Made by a program: the position numbers and the translations under genes. Below are positions 25,176 to 37,486 of a stretch of 64,000 nucleotides of DNA, piece by piece. The stretch comes from Candidatus Poribacteria bacterium (GTDB lineage: Bacteria; Poribacteria; WGA-4E; UBA9662): the NCBI GenBank assembly GCA_002709695.1, contig PAQF01000078.1, positions 116,980-180,979 of the forward strand, read 5' to 3'. Each line of letters starts with the position of its first letter. Within the stretch, counting starts at the first letter, position 1. The notes beneath the pieces were generated by a model. It ran no database searches. It was not told the DNA's origin and was given only the letters and a program-made list of their open reading frames with translations.

Positions 25176-26261
25176 TTATTGATTTTCTAACTCCATATTT
25201 TTGATTTCATCTTCGAGGGTTTTAATTTCTGCTAATATTCCCACGTCGGATTCTAGTTCATAAGCCTTCTGATAAGCCGCTAGAGCAGCTTCAGGATCAT
25301 CTAAGAACGATCTCTGGATTTGACCAATCCACTGCCAAGCATCGACTTCGCTAGGATCCAATTCTACAATCTTCTGGTAGATATTAAGTGCTTGGTCATA
25401 GGATCGGGTGCCTCTCGCTCGTCCCGCAATTGAGGCTTGTCGATATAATAGCCCTATCAGTTCTTGACGTGCTTCTACAAAGTGTTCGTTAATATGGACA
25501 GCATCTTCGAGGATCGCAATGGCTTGTTTTTCCATTTTTTCTATCTCAGTTGCGTCAGGTATGTTTTCCTGACCTAAATTTTGATAACCTTGAAGTATTT
25601 GTCGATAAGTCCGCGATAATTGCATCCTTGCGAGTTGTCCTACTGCTGCTAGCTCAAACGGTTGGTGGATCATTTGTAGGTCGTACTGAATTGCTTGCTG
25701 ATAGTGATCAATTGCTTGTTCGAATTGGCGAGCTCCTTGGTATAAAACTCCAAGTAGATAATGAGCCTCAAAATTTTTAGGGTCCTTTTTAATTACTGCT
25801 AAGAATTCCTGTGTTGCTAAGGCCCTTTGCCCATTATCCTTATATAGTTCACCTTGAAGCAATCGTAGTTCTGTATTGTTTCGGTCTATTTCTGCTGCGC
25901 GAGCCAAATGGTCTAGCGCATCCTTGTTCCAATTGCTTCTAAAGTAAATTTCAGAGATACGTAATCTTGCATGAAGTAATTTTTGGGGTTCTTTTTGACT
26001 TTCCATGTGGGTAATGGTTTCCCAATACTTTACTAGTGCTCTAGGCAAGTCCTGTGTCTTGTATAATTGATCTGCTTTCTCTATTAGTTGATCTAAGTCT
26101 GGATTTTCTCCATAGTTTTGATTTGTGTAGGAATTCGTTATATTAACAAAAATGATTACAAAGAAAATGAACACAGCGAATATCTCGAAATAAATGAGCC
26201 ATTTTCTCGTGTTTGTCATTTCGTCAATCATCCTAGTTTCTGAATCAATTTTTCCAAACAA
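25176..26261 (-). CDS. TPR-repeat protein with N-terminal membrane anchor
   Basis: Hydrophobic segment LIYFEIFAVFIFFVIIFV followed by multiple 34-residue TPR-like repeats (AxxxYxxAI motifs). Confidence 0.7.
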   Translation of the reverse strand: MFGKIDSETRMIDEMTNTRKWLIYFEIFAVFIFFVIIFVNITNSYTNQNYGENPDLDQLIEKADQLYKTQDLPRALVKYWETITHMESQKEPQKLLHARLRISEIYFRSNWNKDALDHLARAAEIDRNNTELRLLQGELYKDNGQRALATQEFLAVIKKDPKNFEAHYLLGVLYQGARQFEQAIDHYQQAIQYDLQMIHQPFELAAVGQLARMQLSRTYRQILQGYQNLGQENIPDATEIEKMEKQAIAILEDAVHINEHFVEARQELIGLLYRQASIAGRARGTRSYDQALNIYQKIVELDPSEVDAWQWIGQIQRSFLDDPEAALAAYQKAYELESDVGILAEIKTLEDEIKNMELENQ

Positions 26262-28155
26262 GTCCTTGGTCTAAAAATTCGATGAATCGTTTTTTATTAC
26301 GTGTTAAGCCTGGGAACCTGGTAATCTCACGATCTTCGGGAGATAGCACAACGTAAAATGGCAAAGCTGTTGTTCCAAATCGATCTATTTCCATCTGTTG
26401 ATTTTTATCTTTGTCTGCTCCGCCATCTGTAAACAACTCTATAAGTACAAACTGTTTTAAACGAGATGAAATTTTGGGATCCTTAAACATGTTAGATTCC
26501 ATCCAGCGACAGTTAGTACATGTATAACCAGTAAAATTCACAAACATTGGTTTGCCCGTTTTTTTCGATTGCTTGAGACCTTCCTCGAATTTCATAACCC
26601 AATCCAAACTATTATCTGATGTCTCAGTATTAGGTTTATGAGAGCGGCTTTGTAAATCTAGTGGCAGATAAGCATCAATAAGGCTATGTAGAGGATGTCC
26701 TGTTAAGCCTTTTGACATATAGATGGCAAATGTAAACAGGACTATGCTGAGGATCAAACGAGGCGCACTAATAGTTTCTAGTTCCGAATCATGTGGTAAA
26801 CGAAGTTTGCCAATCAAATATAGACCGGTTAGGAACGCGATCACTATCCATATAGAAAGTACGCTAGATCGAGTGAAAATTCCCCAATTCCATACTAAAT
26901 CTACATTGCTAAGAAATTTGCATGATGCGGCAAGTTCAAGGAATCCCATTACTACTTTTATTGAGTTGAGCCAGCCTCCACTCTTAGGCATTTTTGCCAA
27001 ATATTGAGGGAAGAGTGCCAGCAAGAAAAACGGAACAGCAAATGCTGTTGAAAAAAACAACATTCCAATCAGTGGCCACAGCCAATTTCCTTGAACTGCT
27101 GCAACTAAGAGTAAACCGACAAATTGTACAGTACAAGTGAAAGAGGTCAAGGTAAAAGTCAGCGCCATAAAGAGAGTGCCTACATATCCACCTCTTCCTT
27201 CTTGTGTGGATGAAAATTGCCTAAGAGCTGTGGGGAGTTGGATTTCATACATACCGAAAAGCGAAAATGCAAAGTATACAAAGAGAAAGCCGATAAAAAG
27301 ATTGACCCAAGGACTGGCAGCTAGCTGATTAGCCCCTGAAGCTCCCAGTGTTATGGCTAATATCAATCCTAATATAGTATAAGTAATAATAATACCTGCA
27401 GAATAAATGAAAGCTTGAGCGAGTGTTTTCCCTTCTTCATGTTCACCTCGTTTAATAAAATAGGATACAGTAATAGGAACCATAGGAAACACACACGGAG
27501 TTAGTAATGAGAGAAAACCCATGGATAGGGAAAGAAGAATAAAAGATTTTATTCCCTTGGCTATGATATTATCCAGGTCAATTTTATCGTCGCCAACAGT
27601 AACATCTGTTTCCATCAACTTGTTCTTCTCATTTCTGGGGTTGCCTTCTTCCACTAACAAAGCAACAATCATTTTTGTGGTCTTTGGAGGGTAACAGATG
27701 TGTGGGTCACAAGCTTGATATAAAAGTTCTACGATAAGCGAATATTTACCGGGATTTAAGGTGGGAATAAGCTTAATAGGTGTTTCGAATACAACAGTTC
27801 CTTCATGAAAATAAACATCAATTTGAAACCCTTCATCATATTTGGTTGCAGGTATCGGTTCTAAAGTTTTGCCAAGAGAACTGACTAAGTTCTCGGGCTT
27901 AATAGTCACCTTTGAGGCGACAGGTCCTACACTTTGTTTATTAGCGGCATAAATGTAGAATCCTGATTTAATTAGAGCCTTAGTTTTTACTGTAACTATC
28001 TCTCCTGCTCGAGCAACAGATGGGTTGATTTCTGCCTCAGCAGTTACAACGGAGTCGACTGTGGTAAAGGGGGTAAATTGCCCAATAGCCAATGGTGCTG
28101 TGGTCACCAAAATCAATAATGCTAGTTGAGGGTACTTTTTTTTATGGATATTCAA
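26245..28155 (-). CDS. dsbD: Thiol:disulfide interchange protein DsbD (protein-disulfide reductase)
   Basis: Signal peptide, periplasmic N-terminal domain, multi-helix core with conserved Cys (LLTPCVFPMVPI), and C-terminal thioredoxin fold with CTNCRWME (CxxC). Confidence 0.85.
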   Translation of the reverse strand: MNIHKKKYPQLALLILVTTAPLAIGQFTPFTTVDSVVTAEAEINPSVARAGEIVTVKTKALIKSGFYIYAANKQSVGPVASKVTIKPENLVSSLGKTLEPIPATKYDEGFQIDVYFHEGTVVFETPIKLIPTLNPGKYSLIVELLYQACDPHICYPPKTTKMIVALLVEEGNPRNEKNKLMETDVTVGDDKIDLDNIIAKGIKSFILLSLSMGFLSLLTPCVFPMVPITVSYFIKRGEHEEGKTLAQAFIYSAGIIITYTILGLILAITLGASGANQLAASPWVNLFIGFLFVYFAFSLFGMYEIQLPTALRQFSSTQEGRGGYVGTLFMALTFTLTSFTCTVQFVGLLLVAAVQGNWLWPLIGMLFFSTAFAVPFFLLALFPQYLAKMPKSGGWLNSIKVVMGFLELAASCKFLSNVDLVWNWGIFTRSSVLSIWIVIAFLTGLYLIGKLRLPHDSELETISAPRLILSIVLFTFAIYMSKGLTGHPLHSLIDAYLPLDLQSRSHKPNTETSDNSLDWVMKFEEGLKQSKKTGKPMFVNFTGYTCTNCRWMESNMFKDPKISSRLKQFVLIELFTDGGADKDKNQQMEIDRFGTTALPFYVVLSPEDREITRFPGLTRNKKRFIEFLDQGLVWKN

Positions 28156-32597: not shown

Positions 32598-33548
32598 TCA
32601 AGTGATCGTTAAATCATCCTGTTCAATTTCTTTCACTTGTTCAATTAGTTGCTGTGCTGCATGACGAAAAGCTTCAGATTGGGGGGATTCCGGATAAGCC
32701 ACTGTGATTGGTACACCAAGATCCCCACACTCACAGATTTTCGGATCTATTGGGATTTGACCAAGTAATGGTATGCCAAGATCTTCACTCATTTTCTTTC
32801 CACCACCAGATCCAAATATAGCTACTCGTTTCTGATTTTCGGGACTGATAAAATAACTCATGTTCTCAATTATACCAAGCATGGGAACATTCATTCGATT
32901 GCACATGCCAATTGAGCGTCGAACATCAGCAAGTGCAACATCCTGTGGTGTTGTAACAATTATTGCTCCCGTTAAGGGTAACGTTTGGCTTAACGATAAT
33001 TGGGCATCACCAGTTCCTGGTGGCATATCAATTACTAGGTAATCAAGATCATCCCATATAACGTCCCCTAGCATTTGGCGAATTGCGCTGTGAATCATTG
33101 GGCCACGCCAAATTAAAGCTTGTTCTTCGCTAACCATGAATCCAATTGACATCAGTGAAATATTATGGCTCTTTAGCGGAATCAGCTTTTTGTTTTCATT
33201 TGTCTTAGGTTGTTCCCTGATTCCCATCATAGTTGGAATACTAGGACCATAGACATCTGAATCCAACAAACCAACTTTATCACAAATCTCTGACAAAGCA
33301 ATTGCAATGTTTACAGCAACGGTAGATTTTCCAACTCCTCCCTTTCCACTCGCAACAATGATTACGTTGTCTACGTGTGGAATCAACTCATCCTGTTCTG
33401 GTTCAGCAGGAGGTTGTGTGGGTGTTGGAGTAGATTTGGAAACTGAGGACCCACTAATAACCTTCAGTTCAGGATGTGCTACGGTTTTTGGCTTTGCTTT
33501 GTCCTGATCCAATTTGTTCTCATCCTTTTTCTTTCCAAAAAACTTCAT
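32598..33548 (-). CDS. Mrp/NBP35 (ApbC-like) iron-sulfur cluster carrier ATPase
   Basis: Deviant Walker A VASGKGGVGKSTVAVNIA, and a CxxC in the C-terminal half (DPKICECGD). Confidence 0.85.
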   Translation of the reverse strand: MKFFGKKKDENKLDQDKAKPKTVAHPELKVISGSSVSKSTPTPTQPPAEPEQDELIPHVDNVIIVASGKGGVGKSTVAVNIAIALSEICDKVGLLDSDVYGPSIPTMMGIREQPKTNENKKLIPLKSHNISLMSIGFMVSEEQALIWRGPMIHSAIRQMLGDVIWDDLDYLVIDMPPGTGDAQLSLSQTLPLTGAIIVTTPQDVALADVRRSIGMCNRMNVPMLGIIENMSYFISPENQKRVAIFGSGGGKKMSEDLGIPLLGQIPIDPKICECGDLGVPITVAYPESPQSEAFRHAAQQLIEQVKEIEQDDLTIT

Positions 33549-33612
33549 ATTCTTCCTTTCAAGTAAAACAACGATGCTGACTTAAATTCTAAATTAAACG
33601 GTTGCTGACTTT

Positions 33613-34992
33613 TTAATTGGTATAATACAGACCAAAGAGAATCATCATCTCGTCCGTACTGAGGAATCCAAAGTTAACTTCTCTATTTCGTGTATTATTG
33701 TATGTTGCTATAAGTTTAACTCCTTGTCCGGCATCTAGAACAAGTGGAGGGTCCAATTCCAATATAGGTGGGTGTTCCCAATCGTTGGAGAAATAAATTT
33801 CTTCACCGTTTCTTTTTCCTCCGTTGATTTCGACTCGAAACTCGGTATTCAGTTCATGGGCATGTGAAAAGAGTTGGAAAATGTGAACCTTTTCTCGGAA
33901 ATTAAAGGTTTTATGCAAAGTAGTAATTCGATTTGGGGGCAGTCGAATGTCCAGATTTGTGAAAGTGATCACTTCTGCCATATGCTCAACCTGCTTTGGG
34001 TCTGCATAGTATAAATTGGCGTATACTTCACCTAATATCTTCGATTTTGTACGATTGACGTAATGTGAGTTTAGGTCAAACCCAGAATTTGCTGGAATTC
34101 TTAAAGCGATTCCAGCAGGAAATTTATAGTTCATCTTTGGCCACTGAGTACCTGCAACAAAAGTATGAAATCGCATTGATTGGATAGTGGTCAATATGTA
34201 ACTTCCATTTTTGTCTCTTAACTCACGGTAAACTTGAGGTTGTGGAATTGGTACGTTTGCTTGAAAACCATAGATAAGGAAATGATGACTCCCAGGTCTC
34301 ATAGAAATTTCTACCTGATTAATATAGATTGGTTCTGGGTTCTCCAGTGGTTGGTAATAAAAAAATTCACGTTCAGAATCAGGCTGAATTTCAAATTGCT
34401 TTACATGTAATTGTTTGCCATCTTTAGGAGGTGGGGGAGGAATAAATGCAGGTTGAGATTGGTATCGTTCTGTGTTCTCCAGCAATTTCAGATCCGCAAC
34501 CACAGTTGTTTTTGGCGCACCTTCTATAATCCATTTTCTAATGAATTCCAATTCCCCATATGTGAGTGGTGTTAATGGCCGGGGTGGCATAATACTTCCG
34601 TAACTTGGGTGGTCTTGGTAGAAATGATCCTCATTCGGTGCATTAATCTTTTCCCATAGAAAACTTTTAGCTAGGCTTTTTGGCCCGTTTGTTCCAACAA
34701 GTATCAGGCTATCTGAGCGAGCTGTAGCATTTTTTGGTATACGGTTGATCAATTGACTATAAGCAACATCAGGAGTGAGTATCAGCCCTGATTGAGTGGC
34801 TTCAGACGCTCCGTTTTGGTGACATGATACGCATTTTGGAGATAGAATTTGATCTTGGATAACCAGCCAAGTTGCGGCTGATGGAGCTTCAGCTAGAGAC
34901 TCTTCCATCGTTTCCTCTTCATCACTACTACAGCTAATAAATATCGTAAGGTATACAACAAGCAAGATAACTGAAACTAGTTTTATTTTCAT
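33613..34992 (-). CDS. Secreted lipoprotein with CxxCH haem-binding motif and PHM/DBH-like copper-monooxygenase histidine pattern (hypothesis)
   Basis: Signal peptide plus lipobox (LTIFISC), CVSCHQNG, PPPPPKDG linker, then SHHFLIYGF ... FSHAHELN ... DEMMILFG, resembling CuH (HH..H) and CuM (HxH..M) sites. Overlaps the IscS stop by 4 nt. Confidence 0.45.
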   Translation of the reverse strand: MKIKLVSVILLVVYLTIFISCSSDEEETMEESLAEAPSAATWLVIQDQILSPKCVSCHQNGASEATQSGLILTPDVAYSQLINRIPKNATARSDSLILVGTNGPKSLAKSFLWEKINAPNEDHFYQDHPSYGSIMPPRPLTPLTYGELEFIRKWIIEGAPKTTVVADLKLLENTERYQSQPAFIPPPPPKDGKQLHVKQFEIQPDSEREFFYYQPLENPEPIYINQVEISMRPGSHHFLIYGFQANVPIPQPQVYRELRDKNGSYILTTIQSMRFHTFVAGTQWPKMNYKFPAGIALRIPANSGFDLNSHYVNRTKSKILGEVYANLYYADPKQVEHMAEVITFTNLDIRLPPNRITTLHKTFNFREKVHIFQLFSHAHELNTEFRVEINGGKRNGEEIYFSNDWEHPPILELDPPLVLDAGQGVKLIATYNNTRNREVNFGFLSTDEMMILFGLYYTN

Positions 34993-36194
34993 GCTTGTTG
35001 CTGACTGCCTTTTCTAACTATCTTGTACATTGAGGACAAATTTCGTAATTTCGTTACTTGCTTTGATAGTTGGTCTGCAACAAAGTTAACTTGATTTAAC
35101 GTATTGCTGCGTCCTAATCCAAAACGAATTGGGGACCTAGCCAGTTCTTCTTCAACTCCCATAGCCATCAACACACGTGAAGTTTCGATTGATGATGAAG
35201 AACAGGCAGAACCTGTCGATAGTGCTATGTTGCTGAGATTTTCAAGTAGGGACAAACTCTCAACAAATTCAAAACTGATGTTTAGGTTGCCTGGCAATCG
35301 CTTTTCTGGATGGCCGTGTACATGCATGAAGTCAATATTTTCAGATATCTTTTGATGTAGATGATTGCGTAAATTTGTAAGATGCTTTGCTTCAGCTTCC
35401 ATCTCAGATTGGGCAATTTCACATGCTGCGCCAAAACCAACGATACTAGGAACATTCAGTGTTCCTGAACGGATGTTAGCTTCCTGACCTCCACCATGAT
35501 TTTGTGGTTTTATTCGGATTTTAGGTCGTTTACTGCGAATATGGAGCGCGCCAATACCTTTAGGACCGTACATTTTGTGTGCTGTCAGCGACATCAAGTC
35601 CACTTTCAAGGTATCAACGCTCGACTCGACTTTTCCAATTCCTTGCACAGCATCTGAGTGAAATAGCACACCATGATCCTGTGAGATTTCTCCGATTTCA
35701 CTCAATGGATTAATTGTGCCCACTTCATTGCTAGCATAAATGATACTTATCAATATTGTCTGGTCAGTGATAGCCTCTTTTACATCTTGAGGATCAACCA
35801 TACCATACTGATCAACTGGTAGATATGTAACTTCAAACCCGTCTTTTTCGAGTGTCTTACAGGATTCAAGAATTGCGCTATGTTCGATCTGAGAGGTAAT
35901 GAGATGGTTGCCTTTTCGACGGTATTGCTGGGCGACACCTTTAATTGCTAGATTGTCAGATTCTGTTGCACCATTGGTGAAAATAATCTCTTCCGGGTTA
36001 CATCCGATGAGCTTGGCTATCTGTTGTCGTGCCAGCTCGACCGCTTCTTTGGCACGCCACCCGAAAGCATGAGTATTACTTGAAGCATTACCAAACTCAC
36101 TAGTGAGATAAGGCATCATCGTTTCTAAAACGCGTGGATCTAGGGGGGTTGTGGCATGGTGATCCATGTAAATTCTTTGAAACGTTTTTTCCAT
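34989..36194 (-). CDS. iscS: Cysteine desulfurase, class I (IscS/NifS type)
   Basis: IYMDHHATTPLDPRVLETMMPYL, GATESDNLAIKGVA, PLP Lys region SLTAHKMYGPKGIGAL, and active-site STGSACSS. Confidence 0.85.
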   Translation of the reverse strand: MEKTFQRIYMDHHATTPLDPRVLETMMPYLTSEFGNASSNTHAFGWRAKEAVELARQQIAKLIGCNPEEIIFTNGATESDNLAIKGVAQQYRRKGNHLITSQIEHSAILESCKTLEKDGFEVTYLPVDQYGMVDPQDVKEAITDQTILISIIYASNEVGTINPLSEIGEISQDHGVLFHSDAVQGIGKVESSVDTLKVDLMSLTAHKMYGPKGIGALHIRSKRPKIRIKPQNHGGGQEANIRSGTLNVPSIVGFGAACEIAQSEMEAEAKHLTNLRNHLHQKISENIDFMHVHGHPEKRLPGNLNISFEFVESLSLLENLSNIALSTGSACSSSSIETSRVLMAMGVEEELARSPIRFGLGRSNTLNQVNFVADQLSKQVTKLRNLSSMYKIVRKGSQQQA

Positions 36195-36640
36195 TAGCTT
36201 CCTCTGTTCATAATGATAATTTTACTGAACCAATATAGTGAAGTCAAGTTCTTAACCCTACCCATCTATCAATTGTGAAAACAGGTATATCATAGAAATT
36301 AACTCAAGATCTTATGCGTGTAAAAAACGGTAAAAAGGTCATGTATTACGAAACCTTACCTTTTGAGTACACACAAATGGAATCCATTCACTATGAGACA
36401 TCAATCAGATTGCAATATCCTCAAAGTTGCCGTTATATTGACCGGCAGCATCAAATGATGTTGAGGTTCCCAACGGCGATTTGCGTGTTCTAGTGATTAT
36501 TTCATCTTTACTAAGTACTTTTAGGCTTTAATCTCATTAACCTTAGCATCATTTCCTTTCTCCTTTTTCAGCAGATAGTCCTAAGGCTAAATCAGGCTCC
36601 AATTTCAGATTTCGCATTGCTCTAGGTCACAATGATATTA

Positions 36641-37272
36641 AGGATTTTAAAGGCAAACATTTATGGTTCCAAACTCTGACTTCATCTACAGTTCTCGTGT
36701 ACACTTGGTACACTTTACCTAAACTTTTGTTTATACAGTTCCACCCTCCGATAATAGTTTCACCTTTGGTACCCATGTACCCTCCATTGCTTACGCTTTC
36801 TGCTACTTTTTCTCCATCAACATAAATTCTTCTGGCTTTTTTTGAATTATCAACCCAGAAGGTAAGGTTATATAAAGGCGCAAATGTAAACTCAAGTTTT
36901 TGCTATTCTTCTCATATTGAGAAAAGATAACTTCTTGTCCTTCAACTAATTTAGATTTTGGCCAAAATTGGACGGTAAAATCTGAATTATTGAAGGAAAT
37001 GTAATGTGTGGAATAATAACCTACGTCTTACCGTCAAGTTGAGACCCTCTGCCAATCTTTACTTCGATCCATCCGATCTTCCCGTTAATTTTCCCATTGT
37101 TCCCTTGGCCAGATCGATCTGTAACTATTTGACCTGCTCCTTCATCAAAAGTTAGAGCTAGAACTAAGTCTTTCGAAATATCTTGTGCTTGTAGTGATAA
37201 AACAGATAAAAGTGCCATTAAATAAATAAAAGAATGTCTTAAGCTATTTAAGTTATAATCTCTTCTCTTCAC
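36641..37272 (-). pseudogene. LamG/concanavalin A-like lectin domain protein, frameshifted pseudogene
   Basis: Intact signal peptide and start of LamG domain (ORF 37021..37272: ...LALTFDEGAGQIVTDRSGQGNNGKINGK...). The domain continues in two other frames (THYISFNNSDFTVQFWPKSKLVEGQEVIFSQ... and VYQVYTRTVDEVRVWNHKCL) over 36641-37020. Confidence 0.55.
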
Positions 37273-37486
37273 TTTTTCCCTTGTTGAGTTCTTATGGTAT
37301 AATTAACTTATAAATGATGTTATCATGGACTTGTATTAGTTTCTGTAGTAAACGCATACATTTTTGTTAAAAAACGTTACAAAAATAATAGTTGCTGAAA
37401 ACTCCGTATTTCTTGTTTTTTCTATTGCCATTTATGCTCCAATTGAATATCCAAATAATTATTTTGTTATTTAAGGTAAATTAATT

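Follow-up and report, generated by a model that had tools for sequence, protein, structure and literature searches.

The analysis concerns a 64,000-nucleotide (nt) stretch of a Candidatus Poribacteria bacterium genome (assembly GCA_002709695.1, contig PAQF01000078.1, positions 116,980 to 180,979; below, the window), and within it a gene for a predicted lipoprotein of 459 amino acids (aa) that lies between iscS, encoding an IscS/NifS-type cysteine desulfurase, and mrp, encoding an Mrp/ApbC-type Fe-S carrier ATPase. This protein appears to combine a divergent haem c domain with a core of the type found in the copper monooxygenases peptidylglycine alpha-hydroxylating monooxygenase (PHM) and dopamine beta-hydroxylase (DBH), the gene having entered an iscS-mrp-glcD array by insertion; the explanation as a whole is given a probability of roughly 0.65. 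A preliminary description made from the sequence alone had reported an open reading frame (ORF) of 459 aa with a lipoprotein signal, a single CVSCH motif and histidines spaced as HH...H and HxH...M, and on rereading the sequence this is correct in every detail. Of the two readings that it offered, 'new secreted redox protein' fares better.

A search of the PDB with the 459-aa sequence alone (phmmer) gave nothing meaningful, the best match having an E of 0.6, and a family profile was therefore needed. Built from an alignment of 54 diverse relatives, down to 25% identity, this profile retrieves rat PHM (1sdw, E 2.1e-7) and human DBH (4zel, E 3.3e-7). The matches span the entire catalytic cores of both enzymes and align the six copper ligands one to one, those of PHM being, in the excerpt available of PMC12164859, H107/H108/H172 and H242/H244/M314. 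Four of the equivalent residues (H236, H237, H310 and H379) are present in 54/54 relatives and the other two (H377 and M449) in 53/54. The Pfam family Cu2_monoox_C (PF03712) is matched at E <= 0.01 by 37/54 of the relatives, and structural look-alike clusters in the Atlas, automatically named 'cytochrome c domain-containing protein', in some cases carry the same domain.

Structural comparison leads to the same fold. The AlphaFold2 (AF2) model of the protein has a predicted local distance difference test score (pLDDT) of 92.9 and a predicted template modelling score (pTM) of 0.82, and the top 31 Foldseek matches of its core are all PHM or DBH (best E 4.1e-14). VIA-align places the core on PHM (6ala_C) with a Z of 23.9 and a root-mean-square deviation (rmsd) of 3.0 A over 258 residues, and on DBH (4zel_A) with a Z of 23.0, while PNGase F, as the next family, scores 9.3 at best. 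Across the PHM structures 1PHM, 1SDW and 6ALA the likeness extends to both jelly-roll domains (Z 21-24, rmsd 3.0-3.6 A, about 260 residues), to the HH...H and HxH...M ligands and to a common D-E-M motif. The differences are a sequence identity of only 14-17%, the N-terminal haem c domain and lipid anchor that are added here, and the absence of all of the disulfides of PHM, since there are only three cysteines in the whole protein. Residues 183-459 are thus supported, by sequence profile and model together, as a core of the non-coupled two-copper monooxygenase type (clan CL0612) with predicted CuH- and CuM-type sites (Table 1). The preliminary description had staked its PHM-like reading beforehand on two points, similarity to the PHM fold and conservation of the histidines in homologues, and both are borne out.

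These comparisons support membership of the PHM/DBH superfamily, not identity with PHM itself (EC 1.14.17.3). The residues N316 and Y318, which we take to be peptide contacts in PHM further to R240, correspond to I451, which is Asn in 0/54 relatives, and to F453, which is Phe in 28, Tyr in 11 and another residue in 15. The position of R240, described in the same excerpt of PMC12164859 as binding the peptide through a salt bridge, is occupied by F375, with Arg in 0/54. Hydrophobic residues stand here where PHM anchors the carboxylate of its peptide, so that a glycine-extended peptide is an improbable substrate. This makes it quite unlikely that the protein is a true bacterial PHM, acting on the C-terminal glycines of extracellular peptides either in amidation or in a catabolism that releases glyoxylate. 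PHM is indeed the best structural match, but DBH matches equally well. Genes related to peptides do adjoin members of the family, namely S9 prolyl oligopeptidase (6 loci), amidase (5), gamma-glutamyl transpeptidase (5) and an oligopeptide ABC ATPase (8), but each is limited to one lineage. Likewise, the genes for GlcD/GlcE-type oxidases downstream in the window could be taken to suit such a role, but glcD follows iscS-mrp even where the lipoprotein gene is absent.

The N-terminal part of the protein, residues 35-178, is helical; the CxxCH motif immediately follows the first helix, and a Met-Pro comes some 80 residues later. Among the alignment rows that include this domain, C54 is conserved in 45/45, C57 in 45/46, H58 in 44/46 and M135, the candidate distal haem ligand, in 43/44; CxxCH is found in 73/79 orthologous ORFs. 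In the PDB, the whole-family profile picks up hydrazine synthase alpha by its haem domain (E 6.5e-4), FoxE (E 0.0019) and cytochromes c6, and a profile of the N-terminal domain finds only a cytochrome c6, at an E of about 0.7. The Pfam families PSCyt1 and Cytochrome_CBB3 are matched by 4/54 and 3/54 relatives respectively. A separately folded model of the domain has a pLDDT of 91.1, and 7/16 of the VIA rows listed for it are c-type cytochromes. With class I c-type cytochromes, including PSCyt1 ('Planctomycete cytochrome C') and FoxE (5MAB), it shares the CxxCH after an N-terminal helix and the conserved downstream Met-Pro; it differs from them in being very divergent and, at about 140 residues, longer than is typical. 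The domain is read as a divergent mono-haem cytochrome c that is predicted to bind haem.

With regard to haem attachment, the source genome holds two Cytochrom_C_asm genes (CcmF/CcmC-like, ORFs of 688 and 227 aa), and ResB, of System II, was not found in it. Further down the same-strand string of genes, at 25176-28155 of the window (minus strand), lie one for DsbD (26245-28155) and one for a TPR protein with a weak CcmH/CycH-TPR match. DsbD is a thiol:disulfide interchange protein of the reductant pathway of cytochrome c maturation. The cytochrome-like domain is also present on its own in eight places of the source genome. These fall in seven ORFs of 529-1161 aa (E 6e-13 to 1.5e-5), on contigs 26, 53, 44, 3, 5, 52 and 79 (L083-L088), which resemble the PSCyt-type multidomain proteins of Planctomycetes.

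Export signals support an extracytoplasmic location, as far as can be read from sequence, both for the 459-aa protein, which would be a lipoprotein, and for the family. The N-terminus, MKIKLVSVILLVVYLTIFIS-C21, read by eye, consists of a basic n-region, a hydrophobic core and a lipobox-like FISC, and residues 22-31 of the AF2 model have a pLDDT below 50, as expected for a tether. A lipobox-like motif (loose pattern) precedes the haem motif in 55/79 orthologous ORFs, and relatives bear surface modules of the type IX secretion system (T9SS) sorting, dockerin, Ig-like and FG-GAP kinds.

The family is large. There are 1016 matches among 90% clusters, one of which has 354 member sequences, and 1929 representatives at the 50% level with E <= 0.001, while a single peptide pattern gave 409 confirmed stretches in GTDB genomes sampled at one per species. 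Two cultured bacteria, Ekhidna lutea DSM 19307 (L070) and Marinoscillum luteum KCTC 23939 (L028), are among the carriers, with orthologues of 50-53% identity. It is also modular: 17 of 150 listed representatives, 285-364 aa in length, match only residues ~180-458, and the five such core-only proteins in the alignment each have a lipobox of their own. The existence of these proteins implies that the haem domain is an add-on to an autonomous extracytoplasmic core, and a cytochrome that is an accessory module fits a role as an electron-entry device. The source genome itself has a PHM-like paralogue of 648 aa (L082:1342-3288, minus strand, contig 47), in which an AhpC/TSA thioredoxin-fold domain is followed by a CLSCH cytochrome motif and then by a core with HH, H, HxH and DEM. 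It shares with the window protein the CxxCH-type motif and the PHM-like core, and differs from it in length and in the thioredoxin-fold domain; its match to the family profile (E 1.8e-18) places it in a distant subfamily. A gene for an M24 aminopeptidase P adjoins this paralogue. Full-text searches, from whose coverage subscription journals were absent, found no study of a bacterial fusion of cytochrome c with a PHM-like core. It is well supported that the protein belongs to a large uncharacterised bacterial branch of PHM/DBH-type proteins with a fused haem c domain.

The preliminary description had also noted that the start of the lipoprotein gene overlaps the iscS stop by 4 nt, in an ATGA arrangement, and that the gene for the Mrp carrier follows, as the ORF positions confirm. 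On this it based its other suggestion, that a periplasmic haem/copper protein works with IscS and Mrp in a dedicated cofactor or sulfur-delivery route, the coupling marking a functional module. Neighbouring genes were studied at 80 related loci, found with 16 of the closer alignment rows, considering ORFs of at least 90 aa; the flanks extended at least 1.5 kb upstream in 71 loci and at least 1.2 kb downstream in 74. IscS and Mrp flank the lipoprotein gene in only 5/80 loci, all of them Poribacteria-like (L001, L002, L003, L005 and L006), and 75/80 have neither IscS nor Mrp within reach. Taking starts from the longest ORF, iscS and the lipoprotein gene overlap by 4 nt in L001 and L002 and are separated by 3 nt in L003 and L005 and by 74 nt in L006.

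No neighbour family is common to more than 13/80 loci, and the commoner neighbours are lineage-specific: a lipase-like gene, glutamine synthetase, PriA, MarR, MutY, amidohydrolase, SDR, S9 peptidase and others. In 13 loci (e.g. L021:2070-3302) the lipase-like gene (Lip_C, E 1e-63) is the next one downstream and has the same orientation, and a glutamine synthetase-like gene lies upstream in 12; where the organism is named, these loci belong to Marinimicrobia / Neomarinimicrobiota / Fidelibacterota. It is possible that the lipase-like and glutamine synthetase-like neighbours provide a lineage-specific hint as to function.

Within the Poribacteria, a member of the family was found in 62/81 sampled genomes. 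Only the window's own Poribacteria family (f1) has matches that score as highly as that of the window (E 1e-212 or lower). The members in three others (f2-f4) share 31-34% identity with the window protein and have an N-terminal dockerin (L089:4740-6353, plus strand, and 13 similar), while members from other phyla are 48-60% identical to it. In the 14 loci from these other Poribacteria families, for which ORFs of at least 70 aa were considered, neither IscS nor Mrp lies within 5 kb (14/14). The neighbours there include SDR and GT2 genes (10/14 each), which look like housekeeping genes, as well as a homocysteine methyltransferase/MTHFR fusion and DUF6785. In three of five genomes from outside the window's family, mrp comes immediately after an iscS orthologue of 60-66% identity (L105:1504-4162, L106:442-2673 and L107:1-2646), and glcD comes next in L105 and L107; two f4 genomes have no mrp within the 1.5-kb flank of their iscS orthologue.

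A quick tree of 57 rows, comprising the window protein, 42/80 loci (L004 and the odd-numbered loci L007-L079 were left out) and the 14 Poribacteria loci, was rooted at its midpoint only. In it, the window protein, L001 and L002 group together within a marine clade of several phyla, with Gemmatimonadota and Latescibacterota rows among them. The starred set of eight rows that contains the window protein has an SH-aLRT value of 99, and a long starred branch parts that clade from the 14 other Poribacteria rows. Since iscS is directly followed by mrp in 3/5 out-family genomes, the pair is older than the arrangement in the window, and comparison of gene order shows that the lipoprotein gene was inserted between iscS and mrp of an ancestral iscS-mrp-glcD array in the window's Poribacteria family. 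The insertion probably followed horizontal transfer.

The adjacency to IscS and Mrp is a by-product of this insertion in one lineage and does not speak for a functional link, and the coupling should not be read as a pathway. A functional module with IscS and Mrp is consequently given very little credence. It would account for the 4-nt overlap, for the order iscS-gene-mrp in all five loci with junctions of -4 to +74 nt, and for the lack of a terminator-like site between the genes on the minus strand; the genome also has no IscU, which puts IscS outside a canonical isc operon. Set against this are the 75 loci, the 14 from other Poribacteria families and the three iscS-mrp pairs without the lipoprotein gene described above. 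Furthermore, the lipoprotein and its supposed partners would not share a compartment, and sulfide or persulfide is used at neither copper site.

The insertion of a haem c/PHM-type lipoprotein gene therefore remains the preferred explanation, and homology and domain logic suggest how the protein might work. The haem c domain would take single electrons from periplasmic carriers and pass them to the CuH-type site; the CuM-type site would bind O2 and hydroxylate a C-H bond of the substrate. Electrons would then travel by way of haem and CuH to CuM, with a built-in cytochrome in place of the ascorbate of the animal enzymes, ascorbate being an unlikely donor for a protein that, unlike PHM, is bacterial and periplasmic. 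DBH and tyramine beta-hydroxylase, which have the same catalytic core, offer a parallel in that DBH too has an extra N-terminal redox-associated domain, a DOMON; the extra domain here differs in being a CxxCH cytochrome, and there is no dimerisation domain. A haem domain that donates electrons to an extracellular copper oxygenase has an analogue in the cytochrome domain of cellobiose dehydrogenase, which feeds the copper of lytic polysaccharide monooxygenases. That system differs in its unrelated folds, in its haem, which is of type b, and in the position of the haem domain on a separate enzyme. It is possible, with odds a little short of even, that the family is a large ascorbate-independent, haem-c-wired bacterial class of the PHM/DBH type that oxidises non-peptide (hydrophobic) extracellular substrates.

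Several observations count against the explanation preferred here. With the cytochrome-like domain model, Foldseek finds nothing at E <= 0.001, and its best VIA match, the c-type cytochrome FoxE, has a Z of 5.8, which alone is unconvincing; no Pfam cytochrome family matches the 459-aa protein. For the core, the protein's own PF03712 score is 19.1 bits, below the Pfam threshold of 23, and there is no match to Cu2_monooxygen (PF01082) at E <= 0.1. No biochemical data on any family member were found. Relatives that bear T9SS or dockerin modules would sit beyond the outer membrane, where a supply of electrons from the respiratory chain is no simple matter. Finally, the tight junction with iscS (4-nt overlap or 3-nt gap) persists in 4/5 loci despite divergence of the protein to 57-59% identity, and co-expression with iscS may carry some benefit, because the junction has outlasted this divergence.

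A further alternative is that the core does not hydroxylate, and that the protein binds copper or transfers electrons, for example as a periplasmic reductase of O2 or reactive oxygen species or as a cytochrome-wired copper handler. The lack of a conserved partner or substrate-related neighbour would suit such a role, as would the existence of core-only and many fused forms and the AhpC/TSA thiol-peroxidase-like domain of the paralogue in the same genome. The complete and invariant set of CuH and CuM ligands, including the Met, is however the signature of O2-activating monooxygenases, and the cleft-forming two-domain fold has been kept; this alternative is considered unlikely.

Copper monooxygenases of the PHM/DBH type are treated as eukaryotic, ascorbate-driven enzymes. 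PHM is called widespread in eukaryotes in the part available of PMC8812541, and the text available of PMC6529398 has a single 'PHM-like' passage, without bacterial homologues, the strings 'bacteria' and 'prokaryot' not occurring in it. From a widespread bacterial branch in which haem c is fused to the core, it would follow that PHM/DBH chemistry can be powered in a second way. Such a branch would also offer a bacterial model free of disulfides, where the entry of electrons could be followed optically through the haem, which would bear on the long-debated transfer of electrons from CuH to CuM, sites about 11 A apart according to the excerpt of PMC12164859. The family is abundant in marine metagenomes and common in marine heterotrophs (Poribacteria, Gemmatimonadota, Marinimicrobia/Fidelibacterota, Latescibacterota and Cytophagales); a haem-c-wired class, if real, may attack dissolved organic matter oxidatively by a route so far unrecognised.

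Table 1. Features of the lipoprotein gene, its product and its neighbours (positions in the window)
Feature	Position	Strand	Basis or remark
Haem-c / PHM-like copper monooxygenase lipoprotein gene (predicted function)	33613-34992	minus	459 aa
Signal peptide, lipobox-like FIS-C21 (residues 1-21)	34930-34992	minus	read from sequence
Cytochrome c-like domain (residues 35-178)	34459-34890	minus	conservation, profile, domain model
CVSCH (residues 54-58), single haem attachment motif	34819-34833	minus	sequence
Met135, candidate distal haem ligand	34588-34590	minus	conservation
PHM/DBH-like double jelly-roll core (residues 183-459)	33616-34446	minus	profile, AF2 model, VIA, Foldseek
CuH-type ligands	H236/H237 34282-34287; H310 34063-34065	minus	aligned to PHM H107/H108/H172
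CuM-type ligands	H377/H379 (HAH 377-379) 33856-33864; M449 33646-33648	minus	aligned to PHM H242/H244/M314
IscS/NifS-type cysteine desulfurase gene	34989-36194	minus	401 aa; upstream neighbour of lipoprotein gene
ATGA overlap	34989-34992	minus	ATG = lipoprotein start, TGA = iscS stop
Mrp/ApbC-type Fe-S carrier ATPase gene	32598-33548	minus	316 aa; 64 nt past lipoprotein stop
Promoter-like site TTGACT-17-TAAAAT	36219-36247	minus	25 nt upstream of iscS; weak evidence

The three genes run head to tail in the order iscS, lipoprotein gene, mrp/apbC, and the letters at the first junction are gcATGAaaa. The IscS product matches Pfam Aminotran_5 (E 2.3e-80) and scores 534.3 bits with the NCBIfam IscS model NF010611, slightly below its cut-off of 548; the Mrp product matches Pfam ParA/NUBPL (E 4.8e-103), with scores beneath the cut-offs of both the MrpORP and ApbC models of NCBIfam. 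A scan found no terminator-like site on the minus strand between these genes. There are 12 promoter-like sites in the region as compared with 13.6 in shuffled sequence, the counts of promoters and terminators both being at the shuffled level. RNA contigs from four metatranscriptome runs cover parts of mrp, the lipoprotein gene (33594-34338 and 34746-34875) and iscS (35657-36099) at 93-100% identity; none in the four runs spans the iscS/lipoprotein junction, and carry-over of DNA is possible.

The source genome, which is 96% complete, has nine genes of the class-V aminotransferase family, the window iscS included, and no match to NifU_N/IscU. As the genome is without IscU, the window IscS lies outside a canonical isc operon; its only neighbours are the lipoprotein gene and mrp, rather than an operon of the iscRSUA-hscBA-fdx type. 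Fe-S assembly in this genome probably proceeds without the classical ISC scaffold.

Upstream of iscS, at 36400-37302 on the minus strand, are the broken remains of a gene for a secreted LamG-like protein. A piece with a signal peptide ends in a stop, and two more pieces in other frames match Laminin_G_3 at the successive profile positions 6-49 (E 0.016) and 82-143 (E 8.9e-5). The GC content falls as low as 0.33 at these remains, which are likely to be a pseudogene.

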